This document shows positions 37,691 to 38,455 of a stretch of DNA of 64,000 bases, piece after piece. Position 1 is the first letter of the stretch; the number at the start of each line of letters is the position of its first letter. Under the pieces are notes generated by a model. That model had not been told where the DNA came from. It did not search any database and was given only the letters and a program-made list of their open reading frames with translations. This stretch comes from Escherichia coli. GTDB taxonomy: Bacteria > Pseudomonadota > Gammaproteobacteria > Enterobacterales > Enterobacteriaceae. The stretch is taken from the NCBI RefSeq assembly GCF_048403405.1, contig NZ_CP183129.1; one strand, given 5' to 3'. Both the position numbers and the translations under genes were made by a program.

Positions 37691-37767
37691 GCATCCGTAG
37701 CTCAGCTGGATAGAGTACTCGGCTACGAACCGAGCGGTCGGAGGTTCGAATCCTCCCGGATGCACCA
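37691..37767 (+). tRNA. argV: tRNA-Arg (anticodon ACG), copy 1
   Basis: GCATCCGTAGCTCAGCTGGATAGAGTACTCGGCTACGAACCGAGCGGTCGGAGGTTCGAATCCTCCCGGATGCACCA; 3 nt after serV. Confidence 0.93.
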
Positions 37768-37901
37768 TATTCTACGTACTTTCAGCGATGAAGGTATGGA
37801 AGAGGTGGCGGTAATAACCGCAGGCACCAGGGAGGATAACGTTGCTTTAGCAACGGCCCGAAGGGCGAGCCGCAAGGCGAGTAATCCTCCCGGATGCACC
37901 A
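37768..37901 (+). repeat. ~134-nt tRNA-associated repeat ending in a copy of the tRNA-Arg 3' end, copy A
   Basis: atattctacgtactttcagcgatgaaggtatggaagagg...aatcctcccggatgcacca; the last ~19 nt equal the T-arm/acceptor 3' end plus CCA of tRNA-Arg; a near-identical copy lies at 38323-38455. Confidence 0.7.
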
Positions 37902-37965
37902 TCTCTTACTTGATACGGCTTTAGTAGCGGTATCAAAAAATCTGCAGTAAAGTAAGTTTCCCGAT

Positions 37966-38042
37966 GCATCCGTAGCTCAGCTGGATAGAGTACTCGGCTA
38001 CGAACCGAGCGGTCGGAGGTTCGAATCCTCCCGGATGCACCA
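37966..38042 (+). tRNA. tRNA-Arg (ACG), copy 2
   Basis: Identical 77-nt tRNA-Arg sequence. Confidence 0.93.
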
Positions 38043-38105
38043 TCTCTTACTTGATATGGCTTTAGTAGCGGTATCAATATCAGCAGTAAAATAAATTTTC
38101 CCGAT

Positions 38106-38182
38106 GCATCCGTAGCTCAGCTGGATAGAGTACTCGGCTACGAACCGAGCGGTCGGAGGTTCGAATCCTCCCGGATGCACCA
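38106..38182 (+). tRNA. tRNA-Arg (ACG), copy 3
   Basis: Identical 77-nt tRNA-Arg sequence; 63-nt spacer from copy 2. Confidence 0.93.
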
Positions 38183-38245
38183 TCTCTTACTTGATATGGC
38201 TTTAGTAGCGATATCAATATCAGCAGTAAAATAAGTTTTCCCGAT

Positions 38246-38322
38246 GCATCCGTAGCTCAGCTGGATAGAGTACTCGGCTACGAACCGAGCGGTCGGAGGT
38301 TCGAATCCTCCCGGATGCACCA
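38246..38322 (+). tRNA. tRNA-Arg (ACG), copy 4
   Basis: Identical 77-nt tRNA-Arg sequence; 63-nt spacer from copy 3. Confidence 0.93.
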
Positions 38323-38455
38323 TATTCTCCGTAATCTTCAGCAATGAAGGTATCGAAGAGGTAGCGGTATTAACCGCAGGCACCAGGGAGGATAACGTTG
38401 CGCCAGCAACGGCCCGAAGGGCGAACGCCAGTGAGTCATCCTCCCGGATGCACCA
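38323..38455 (+). repeat. ~133-nt tRNA-associated repeat ending in a copy of the tRNA-Arg 3' end, copy B
   Basis: atattctccgtaatcttcagcaatgaaggtatcgaagagg...catcctcccggatgcacca; roughly 85-90% identical by eye to copy A. Confidence 0.7.

Follow-up and report, generated by a model that had tools for sequence, protein, structure and literature searches.

tRNA-linked repeats in the serV-argVYZQ operon of Escherichia coli: predicted arm-tail helix, wide occurrence of the core and copy-number variation between strains

In the window, a stretch of 64,000 nucleotides of Escherichia coli DNA (contig NZ_CP183129.1), the genes alaS, csrA and serV are followed by four tRNA-Arg genes and yqaB. Genome comparison found the window to be 100% identical to E. 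coli TUM14771 and showed that it contains the E. coli csrA-serV-argV/Y/Z/Q-yqaB locus. All features described here lie on the plus strand unless stated otherwise. The gene serV, encoding tRNA-Ser(GCU), was located at 37595..37687 by ARAGORN, the Rfam tRNA model (56.8 bits) and the K-12 annotation. Upstream of it, a consensus scan detected a promoter-like site (TTGACT/16 nt/TAATAT, 37505..37532; shuffled expectation: 1.8 sites), a consensus match that is likely to be the promoter of the operon.

ARAGORN and Rfam placed four tRNA-Arg(ACG) genes downstream of serV, all of them identical 77-mers: copy 1 in argV position (37691..37767), copy 2 (37966..38042), copy 3 (38106..38182) and copy 4 in argQ position (38246..38322). 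Their spacers measure, in order, 198, 63 and 63 nt; genes and spacers are as given in a preliminary description of this DNA. The 198-nt spacer is composed of a 134-nt element (37768..37901) and a 64-nt short spacer S (37902..37965), which is the same unit (repeat family D3) as the 63-nt spacers at 38043..38105 and 38183..38245. At the latter position K-12 carries raZ plus S (198 nt), and the K-12 spacer series of 198/62/198 given in the preliminary description proved exact. The element of ~134 nt reported after copies 1 and 4 was found as the 134-nt unit and as a near-copy of 133 nt in the 3' trailer of copy 4 (38323..38455). Between this near-copy and yqaB, the consensus scan returned one weak terminator-like hairpin with a T-run (38562..38586; 1.2 sites expected by chance), which possibly marks the end of the transcription unit. 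A minus-strand call by ARAGORN ('tRNA-Arg tcg', 37711-37782) overlaps copy 1 in antisense and was read as an artefact. Sub-threshold Rfam matches to Plastid-ycf2 and mir families fell on tRNA antisense or on hairpins and were ignored.

The repeated element is a known tRNA-linked repeat (TLR). A TLR is defined by its 3'-terminal 18-19 bp, which repeat exactly those of the tRNA or rRNA that precedes it (Stenum et al. 2021, PMC8144298). The first description of the family is attributed to Egan & Landy 1978, and 22 TLRs at ten K-12 loci were counted by Rudd 1999 as cited in PMC8144298. Both elements of the window lie directly 3' of a stable RNA gene and begin immediately behind the CCA of a tRNA-Arg gene. 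Both end, as the preliminary description had noted, with a copy of the tRNA-Arg 3' end including CCA, 19 nt long in the first element and 18 nt in the second, so that the tail is present six times within 770 nt, far beyond chance. The first element is 100% identical to raV, the catalogued K-12 member of the argV-argY spacer, and the second is raQ; these names follow the strain-table entry 'argY/Z/Q, raQ/Z/V' (PMC8144298). We assigned raV from the repeat search, K-12 identity, its fold and a sub-threshold match to the RtT model, and raQ from repeats, its fold and its RtT score. The two elements are 88% identical overall and 92% identical over an 88-nt core. K-12 has three elements, one of them also after argQ, and the window has two because raZ is missing in this strain. 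The preliminary description did not recognize that raV and raQ belong to a described family, one that is related to the RtT RNA encoded in the tyrT operon.

Sequence, folding and comparison together show a TLR anatomy of a conserved three-hairpin core closed by a helix of ~13 bp. The minimum-free-energy folds had z scores of -5.4 (raV) and -5.05 (raQ). Hairpin 1 is AACGUUGC-N4-GCAACG, predicted at 37840-37855 in raV and 38396-38411 in raQ, and hairpin 2 is GCCC-GAA-GGGC (37856-37866 and 38412-38422); both had been pointed out before and occur in both copies. Hairpin 3 is short, variable and flanked by GA...GA (predicted at 37869-37878 and 38425-38432). Two further hairpins are predicted in the 5' part of raV, hairpin A at 37775-37798 and hairpin B at 37808-37821. 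In the closing helix, the tRNA 3'-end copy of 18-19 nt is predicted to pair with an upstream arm resembling the tRNA acceptor 5' strand fused to the T-stem 5' strand. In raV the predicted arm is GCACCAGGGAGGAU (37824-37837) and the tRNA-derived tail is AAUCCUCCCGGAUGCACCA (37883-37901); in raQ they occupy 38380-38393 and 38438-38455. With acceptor-like and T-stem-like strands in one helix, the RNA would, on the predicted fold, mimic an acceptor/T minihelix that ends in ACCA and has the core in place of the T loop.

An alignment of 21 arg-type TLRs from ~11 genera supported the fold: 87.4% of cells were paired, compared with 31-46% in slid controls, the covariation score was reached by none of 500 shuffles, and compensatory pairs occurred in hairpin 3 and hairpin B. 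The sequence of the hairpin core was invariant in these genera while the loops varied. Most closing-helix pairs of the arg type were uninformative because they are invariant, and the RNAalifold consensus did not include the outermost portion of the helix, GCA:UGC. Arm and tail covary when 11 tRNA types are compared. Arms were more complementary to their own tail than to other tails for Arg(ACG) (p = 3e-8), Tyr (4e-8) and Lys(UUU) (2e-5), and within a single tRNA type there were compensatory changes and arm-tail helices of up to 14 bp. The strongest covariation is that between tRNA types, and this complementarity could be due in part to an origin from a tRNA copy.

The elements might be decaying tRNA pseudogenes or recombination by-products free of selection at the RNA level, with a structure inherited from the parent tRNA. 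Long-type TLRs keep tRNA-like 5' segments, weak ARAGORN and Rfam tRNA calls occur inside Photorhabdus units, and some E. coli strains carry degenerate copies that have internal deletions, all of which would suit such decay. However, the hairpins 3 and B that show compensatory changes have no tRNA counterpart, the arm-tail helices are much longer than a T stem of 5 bp and bring together acceptor and T strands that do not adjoin in tRNA, and the core sequence is conserved between distant genera. ARAGORN and the Rfam tRNA model gave no plus-strand match within 37768-37901 or 38323-38455, and for this reason we reject a tRNA pseudogene. Instead of a cloverleaf with an anticodon arm, only the acceptor/T-like helix is predicted. 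The earlier idea of a pseudo-tRNA is partly supported by this predicted helix of tail and upstream arm ending in ACCA; we consider decay without selection decidedly improbable.

The core is widespread in Gammaproteobacteria and also occurs as dispersed repeats without tRNA linkage. Among 168 core matches, 92 had a tail with 18/18 identity to the nearest upstream tRNA, and the tails were of 19 distinct kinds from 11 isoacceptor types. The same core was found behind 11 tRNA types and behind 5S rRNA, in tandem runs that reach 14 units or more; it is common to every tRNA-operon TLR that we extracted from K-12 and to the rrnB (5S) TLR. Hairpins 1 and 2 are strongly conserved from Enterobacterales to Xanthomonadales-like genomes, a conservation that points to some specific partner or function not accounted for by a model of processed by-products.

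A tRNA 3' fragment at the border of a repeat had been taken as the footprint of either site-specific integration or unequal recombination. In the first case, an integrase-borne element would once have entered the tRNA gene at its T loop or 3' end, duplicated the tRNA 3' end as attL and attR and then lost nearly all of its interior. The T loop is the typical integrase crossover region at att sites in tRNA genes. The elements are indeed DNA flanked by direct repeats of the tRNA 3' end, these repeats begin in the T loop, and the presence/absence polymorphism has its borders precisely at the repeat. Recombination between the 19-nt repeats explains this precise loss equally well, however, and only ~115 nt without a conserved ORF lie between the repeats. 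Neither mobile-element genes nor genuine relatives were found among the ORFs or in the phage and plasmid collections; an origin from phages or plasmids was discarded, as the matches there were misfiled chromosomes or fragments. Nor would att arms be expected to carry a conserved, covarying RNA fold with a 5' arm that matches each tRNA's own tail, and further arguments against a scar are the tandem runs of the core and its presence after 5S rRNA as well as after 11 tRNA types. An old att remnant is therefore very unlikely in our view. The recombination half of the earlier interpretation fits the observed patterns; the integration half found no support.

The preliminary description had also suggested rearrangement of the array from strain to strain, and the sampled genomes clearly do not share one arrangement. 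In 59 E. coli genomes, a sample spread by score rather than drawn at random among 5,426 genomes, the arg array fell into at least 11 length classes, a count that may be affected by repeat collapse in some assemblies. The 16 loci that we parsed (15 other strains and K-12) contained 2-5 tRNA genes and 0-4 intact TLRs each, and the 19-nt repeat was the exact site of their TLR losses. In strain 19AR1724 the four tRNA-Arg genes come without any TLR, and strain IBS28 has four TLRs. A deletion of argYZQ, which takes out TLRs too, is viable, and the strain table of PMC8144298 lists a K-12 derivative without all 22 TLRs. The element is dispensable.

The arg elements were also compared with the tyrT operon. 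The 3' half of the TLR was 75-86% identical to the four tyrT-operon repeats (blastn E = 1e-7 to 3e-8). Against the Rfam RtT model RF00391, raV scored 29.2 bits (34.7 when searched alone) and raQ 25.8 bits, below the curated gathering score of 45 bits, which the tyr, pro, lys and ser TLRs of K-12 exceed (46-137 bits). The arg elements are nevertheless homologous to the core and 3' part of RtT, as they align to model positions 46-130 with high posterior probability; their scores of 26-35 bits are explained by the absence of the first ~45 model positions. The annotated rttR RNA begins 7 nt after tyrV and ends exactly at the CCA of the TLR rtV1. A released RNA is reported for tyrT only (Bosl & Kersten 1991, via the citing papers PMC8144298 and PMC4986893). 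Our literature search for reports of how the arg spacers are processed or expressed, which covered Bosl & Kersten 1991 and Rudd 1999 second-hand, yielded nothing specific.

The tyrT repeat is annotated with the small-protein gene tpr, whose frame traverses the homologous core, and a 32-codon ORF initiated by TTG overlaps raQ. That the arg elements likewise encode a small protein is nonetheless hardly credible. The equivalent frame of raV lacks an ATG and has a stop in the loop of hairpin 1, the ORF is not common to both copies, and the loops vary freely between species. Because of the in-frame stop in raV and the lack of a shared ORF, we reject tpr-like coding.

TLR RNAs may also be trans-acting sRNAs or decoys. 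They would either titrate proteins, as proposed for RrA, RrB and RrF with CsrA and Hfq, or mimic uncharged tRNA ends, in which case RNase P, the CCA-adding enzyme, 3' exonucleases, RelA and the ribosome, or toxins would be the targets. For the 5S-linked RrA, RrB and RrF, in vitro binding to Hfq and CsrA is reported (Stenum et al. 2021, PMC8144298), so that some members of the TLR family may act in trans. In our comparison RrB had the same hairpins 1 and 2. The invariant core hairpins between variable loops and the wide occurrence of the core in Gammaproteobacteria are in keeping with this, as are Northern signals for RtT-family RNAs in Actinobacillus pleuropneumoniae (PMC4986893), a sub-threshold match of the core to the Aggregatibacter sRNA family RF02902 and the position of the operon directly 3' of csrA. 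On the other hand, the predicted CsrA-binding score is <0.01 for all 19 tRNA-operon TLRs, Stenum et al. describe TLRs as having no known function, and a claim for RtT in the stringent response was later assigned to a nearby ORF (all PMC8144298). Moreover, natural strains lack any arg TLR, a strain without all 22 has been built, and the copy number at the locus is free to range from 0 to 4. We regard a role in trans as unlikely, though deserving some weight.

Taking the evidence jointly, we favour, with some reserve, the view that the elements are TLRs with the described fold that are processed into by-products and vary in copy number through recombination. The serV promoter would drive transcription of TLRs and tRNAs together. 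Through a tRNA-like end, which is followed by the same U-rich sequence as the real tRNAs, the TLR RNA would be cut and trimmed by the enzymes of tRNA maturation, presumably by RNase E-type cleavage after the CCA and by 3' exonucleases halting at the helix; RNase P might also take part. The outcome would be a discrete by-product RNA, proposed for raV and raQ by analogy with the RtT RNA of tyrT only, and no essential function in trans would be required. The 77-nt tRNA genes, 63-nt spacers, 134-nt TLRs and 19-nt tails could all serve as substrates of unequal homologous recombination and repeat-mediated deletion. These processes probably created the observed strain differences in tRNA-Arg and TLR copy number, and gene conversion would hold the tails identical to the adjoining tRNA.

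A more far-reaching interpretation, which we think rather unlikely, is that TLRs are widespread stable mimics of tRNA ends and not inert spacers. They would then constitute a small mobile or convertible RNA module that engages the tRNA 3'-end machinery or a dedicated partner. The three-hairpin module would have been embedded repeatedly in copies of stable-RNA 3' regions (T loops in 11 or more tRNA types, or the 5S 3' end) in addition to its dispersed occurrence.

For the window itself these results are of little importance, as it carries a catalogued repeat with one copy identical to K-12 and no sign of being required. The element, as a catalogued E. coli TLR, is already known; what is added here is the polymorphism of the locus, the predicted arm-tail minihelix fold with its covariation, and the wide and dispersed occurrence of the core. 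The family is an old loose end, described in 1978, present in 22 K-12 copies and also in the rrnB T1-T2 segment. Many cloning vectors carry this segment. The predicted arm-tail helix offers one testable handle, namely that each TLR may mimic the acceptor/T minihelix of its own tRNA, and the identity of the tail to the neighbouring tRNA, which is kept across species, offers another. Natural E. coli variants with 0-4 arg TLRs and 2-5 tRNA-Arg(ACG) genes can be compared as they exist, and variation in copy number of the main tRNA-Arg isoacceptor may matter for translation and for the balance of TadA editing.

Compared with raV, raZ and raQ of K-12, the elements of the window share locus, position and the 18-19-nt hallmark; raV is base-for-base identical and raQ a close allele. 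Two TLRs in the window as against three in K-12 are the sole difference between the serV-argVYZQ TLRs of the two strains. With RtT/rttR, the 178-bp repeats of tyrT, the arg elements have in common a homologous three-hairpin core, the layout of arm, core and CCA-ended tail, and the position after a tRNA. They differ in lacking the segment that resembles the variable and T arms of tRNA (the first ~45 model positions) and a tpr-like ORF, and in having an arm and tail derived from tRNA-Arg instead of tRNA-Tyr.

In rrnA, rrnB and rrnD, the TLRs RrA, RrB and RrF lie between the two terminators. Their hairpins, AACGUUGC-GAAG-CAACG and GCCCGGAGGGU, have a stem identical to that of hairpin 1 and a near-identical hairpin 2, and their tail likewise repeats the 3' terminus of the stable RNA that precedes them. 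In contrast to the tRNA-operon TLRs, they accompany 5S rRNA and follow a terminator, and their expression comes from read-through. The attL/attR pairs at tRNA genes resemble TLRs in that the tRNA 3' end is directly repeated and that presence varies from strain to strain, but TLRs have no integrase, cargo or phage and plasmid relatives; they have a conserved RNA fold in their interior, form tandem runs and also follow 5S rRNA.

Acceptor/T-arm minihelices of tRNA are minimal substrates of RNase P, the CCA-adding enzyme and some aminoacyl-tRNA synthetases. TLRs are predicted to share with them a coaxial helix of 12-13 bp with acceptor-like and T-stem-like strands that ends in a discriminator base and CCA. 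On this predicted fold, the T loop of the minihelix is replaced by a three-hairpin insert of 45-75 nt, and the helix of the arg elements has two bulges.

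The array in the window comprises four identical 77-nt tRNA-Arg(ACG) genes (37691-37767, 37966-38042, 38106-38182 and 38246-38322) with spacers of 198, 63 and 63 nt, preceded by a tRNA-Ser(GCU) gene (37595-37687); ARAGORN and the Rfam tRNA model agreed on all five genes. The repeat finder located the last ~19 nt of tRNA-Arg six times in the region, four times in the genes and again at 37883-37901 and 38438-38455, at the ends of two elements (37768-37901, 134 nt; 38323-38455, 133 nt) that are 88% identical overall and have an 88-nt core of 92% identity in common. Every part of the array set out in a preliminary description lies at the coordinates given there. 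With T for the 77-nt tRNA, E for the 134/133-nt element and S for a short spacer of 62-64 nt, the window array reads T-E-S-T-S-T-S-T-E, and each E module starts directly after CCA and finishes in a second CCA. An inverted repeat, UUGAUAY...GGUAUCAA, is conserved within the short spacer itself (37902-37965, 38043-38105 and 38183-38245), which is also conserved in Salmonella and might, for example, serve in precursor processing. A minus-strand ARAGORN 'tRNA-Arg(tcg)' (37711-37782, antisense to tRNA-Arg copy 1) and sub-threshold Rfam matches to a plastid UTR family on the antisense of each tRNA were read as artefacts of tRNA symmetry.

The region was 100% identical to E. coli TUM14771, where the gene order is alaS-csrA-serV-4x tRNA-Arg-yqaB-yqaA-gshA. 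In K-12 MG1655 the spacers are 198/62/198, as the preliminary description had it, with a further element after argQ, so that the K-12 array is T-E-S-T-S-T-E-S-T-E. Element 1 of the window matches the K-12 element following argV at every base. Against the RtT RNA of the tyrT operon (RF00391), elements 1 and 2 scored 29.2 and 25.8 bits, below the gathering score of 45 (element 1 searched alone: 34.7 bits), and the alignment covered model positions 46-130 only; by blastn, the 3' half of the element was 75-86% identical to the four K-12 tyrT operon repeats. Such tRNA-linked repeats (TLRs) were treated as a family by Stenum et al. 2021 (PMC8144298), who credit their first observation to Egan and Landy, 1978, and cite Rudd 1999 for 22 copies at ten K-12 loci. 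TLRs are defined there by 3'-terminal 18-19 bp that exactly match the 3' end of whichever tRNA or rRNA lies upstream, and are described as having no known function; the strain table lists an 'argY/Z/Q, raQ/Z/V' deletion inside a strain from which all 22 TLRs are missing. From these names and this definition, the window elements are raV (element 1) and raQ (element 2), and raZ is absent from the window. The repeated element is therefore a catalogued repeat rather than something unknown or the scar of an att site: raV and raQ are already known as TLRs of the RtT family.

We determined the array span per genome using only the two 1-kb flanks as query, in 59 E. coli genomes sampled at even steps down the ranking. 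At least eleven length classes were found: 901-902 nt (the K-12 type, 24/59 genomes), 629-634 nt (10/59), 768-774 nt (9/59; the window array spans 768 nt), 1036-1039 nt (7/59), 672-674 nt (3/59), and 330, 499, 736, 761, 875 and 1315 nt (1/59 each). Parsing of 15 fetched loci together with K-12 and the window gave 2-5 tRNA-Arg genes and 0-4 intact TLRs, which bears out the suggestion that the array is rearranged between strains. Every tRNA-Arg gene of IBS28 is followed by a TLR; ST3 has five genes, four intact TLRs and a fifth TLR with a mutated tail; 19AR1724 has no TLR after any of its four genes; UTME-10 is K-12-like without raQ; SC418 has the arrangement of the window; and O157:H7 retains a 102-nt degenerate TLR remnant. 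At TLR-less junctions, the CCA of the tRNA is followed by exactly the sequence that normally follows the CCA of the TLR, and some alleles have internal deletions between GCACCA microhomologies. On the sequence, this polymorphism is the pattern that would be expected if T, S, E and the 19-nt tails took part in unequal crossing-over and in deletion between repeats. Arrays of the same kind, with differing arrangements, occur in Salmonella houtenae, Klebsiella pneumoniae and Enterobacter. In K. pneumoniae strain 176 (L142, filed as a 5.37 Mb 'plasmid'), a BON-domain gene lies between the array and yqaB, the D loop of one tRNA-Arg copy is different, and intact TLRs are followed by partial 5' parts of a second TLR.

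TLRs extracted from the K-12 arg, tyr, lysT, serX, proK and lysV loci have three parts in common: a core, a tail that differs with the adjacent tRNA, and an arm farther upstream whose sequence is complementary to the tail. The core runs GAU(A/G)A, hairpin 1 (AACGUUGC-N4-GCAACG or a covarying equivalent), hairpin 2 (GCCCGAAGGGC), GA, a short variable hairpin 3 and GAGU(A/C)AUCC. The arms are GGGAGGAU (Arg), GGGGAAGGAU (Tyr), CGUG(A/U)AGGAU (Lys), GGGGGGAU (Ser) and GAGGAU (Pro). Folded alone, raV and raQ reached -60.3 and -53.6 kcal/mol (z = -5.4 and -5.05), and none of the shuffled sequences folded as well. In the predicted fold of the 3' 82 nt, hairpins 1-3 sit in a cloverleaf-like four-way junction, closed by a helix of GCACC-A-GGGAGGAU with AUCCUCCCGG-A-UGC beyond which ACCA stays unpaired. 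The arm is similar to the acceptor 5' strand of tRNA-Arg (GCAUCCG, 5/7 positions) fused without a gap to the 5' strand of the T stem (GGAGG); given this likeness, the predicted closing helix is an acceptor/T 'minihelix' in which the core replaces the T loop.

A scan for CCCGNAGGGYGA-N7-14-GAGTNATCC in one genome per species gave at least 120 loci and at least 168 matches. Among the 168 matches listed, the tail was identical at 18/18 positions to the 3' end of the closest tRNA upstream on the same strand in 92 and at 16-17/18 in 14; it fell below 16/18 in 18, some of them because ARAGORN calls a pseudo-tRNA within the repeat, 27 had no upstream tRNA and 17 lay too near the locus edge for judging. 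The 18/18 tails listed comprise at least 19 different sequences and at least 11 isoacceptor types, including Lys UUU/CUU, Arg ACG/CCG, Tyr, Pro CGG/UGG, Ser GGA, Gln CUG/UUG and Asp, and track species-specific tRNA substitutions. Tails paired better with their own upstream region than with those of other TLRs (Arg(ACG): -16.7 vs -11.4 kcal/mol, p = 3e-8; Tyr: p = 4e-8; Lys(UUU): p = 2e-5; Gln and Ser: p < 0.01); the preference was not significant for Pro, Asp, Lys(CUU) and Arg(CCG), mostly because cases were few. Compensatory arm-tail changes also occur inside one tRNA type: for Tyr, Tatumella has GGAGAAGG with CCUUCUCC and E. albertii GGGGAAGG with CCUUCCCC; Gln TLRs (UUU-type UUG anticodon) differ likewise between loci L081 and L116; and for Arg(ACG), Serratia oryzae has AGGAGGAU with AUCCUCCU. 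Arm-tail helices reach 14 bp, far longer than a T stem. When 21 arg-type TLRs from about 11 genera were aligned, 87.4% of cells were paired, compared with 31-46% in slid controls, and the covariation score was reached by 0/500 shuffles. Compensatory pairs lie in hairpin 3 and in hairpin B, upstream of the arm; hairpins 1 and 2 are invariant with variable loops, hairpin 2 being preset by the search pattern, and most closing-helix pairs never vary within the arg type.

The tRNA-end fragment had been taken as a footprint of site-specific integration or unequal recombination. The junctions and length classes support the latter; an integrase scar, or old att remnant, is unlikely. No gene lies between the repeats, the interior is a covarying RNA fold, Photorhabdus carries tandem runs of at least 14 units, and a 5S-linked version exists. 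Nor were genuine relatives found in phage or plasmid collections, where nearly all matches were multi-megabase chromosomes filed there. That the elements encode a tpr-like peptide is also unlikely, because the equivalent frame of raV has a stop.

A promoter-like site upstream of serV (37505-37532) and the sole terminator-like hairpin, after raQ (38562-38576), are consensus matches that carry little weight; read this way, both TLRs would lie inside the transcription unit. The annotated K-12 RttR RNA starts 7 nt downstream of tyrV and has its 3' end precisely at the CCA of the first TLR linked to tyrV, which is the product expected if a TLR underwent 3' maturation of the tRNA type. On this analogy, raV and raQ may be released as discrete RNAs ending at their own CCA. 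We favour the interpretation that the TLR is a co-transcribed spacer processed like a tRNA, and that its DNA repeats drive copy-number change. Deletion of argY, argZ and argQ lowered tRNA-Arg2 16-fold rather than about 4-fold (PMC13170351); going by the coordinates in that paper, the deletion also takes out the TLRs. The context of the array, or the TLRs, may affect how much tRNA is made. Strong conservation of the core, in vitro binding of Hfq and CsrA by RrB (PMC8144298) and Northern signals of RtT-family RNAs in Actinobacillus (PMC4986893) would fit TLR RNAs acting in trans, which we nevertheless consider improbable: tRNA-operon TLRs scored <0.01 in a CsrA prediction and an old stringent-response claim was later withdrawn (PMC8144298), and arrays free of TLRs occur naturally (19AR1724).

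The core (hairpin 1, GGCCCGNAGGGCGA, hairpin 3, GAGUNAUCC) was also seen in dispersed repeats adjoining no tRNA, at L021-L038 (MAG 'Proteobacteria bacterium SZAS LIN-96'), L058, L077-L079, L089, L097, L114 and L119; none of these matched an Rfam family at threshold. The MAG has at least 18 copies of a sharply bordered repeat of about 225 nt, whose 3' part scored 32.5 bits against Xanthomonas sRNA sX9 (sub-threshold; gathering score 44). In Photorhabdus caribbeanensis scaffold_0021 (L039-L041), long-type Lys-linked TLRs stand in tandem at intervals of about 175 nt; 14 units in L041 pass the Rfam RtT threshold, and more runs lie in L039 and L040. Weak tRNA-Lys-like segments were called inside these units by both ARAGORN and the Rfam tRNA model, and each unit resembles a copy of a tRNA whose T loop has taken up the core. 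To what was known of the repeats, our analysis adds how widely the array varies, the reading of the TLR as a minihelix mimic, which covariation supports, and the finding that the core is widespread, also as dispersed copies unlinked to tRNAs.

The consensus of RF02902 (Aggregatibacter sRNA 22) contains the three-hairpin core, with sub-threshold matches at a dispersed copy (L079 1654-1727, 30.9 bits) and at raV (37818-37894, 16.4 bits); the RtT/TLR repeats may belong with this Pasteurellaceae sRNA family in a single larger one. Among K-12 TLRs, those of tyr, pro, lys and ser pass the Rfam RtT threshold, whereas the arg TLRs of the window and of Enterobacter sp. Bisph1 fall below it; compared with the RtT model, arg TLRs are a short form without its tRNA-like 5' segment. 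The T1-T2 segment of rrnB is found in many expression vectors. In K-12, the TLR rrB lies there between terminators T1 and T2 (210-326 of L143, the rrnB locus), and CUGAGUAGGAC in its 5' part mimics GAGAGUAGGGAAC of 5S rRNA. In rrB, hairpins 1 and 2 are the same as in the core of tRNA-operon TLRs, and the tail is the 3' end of 5S rRNA.
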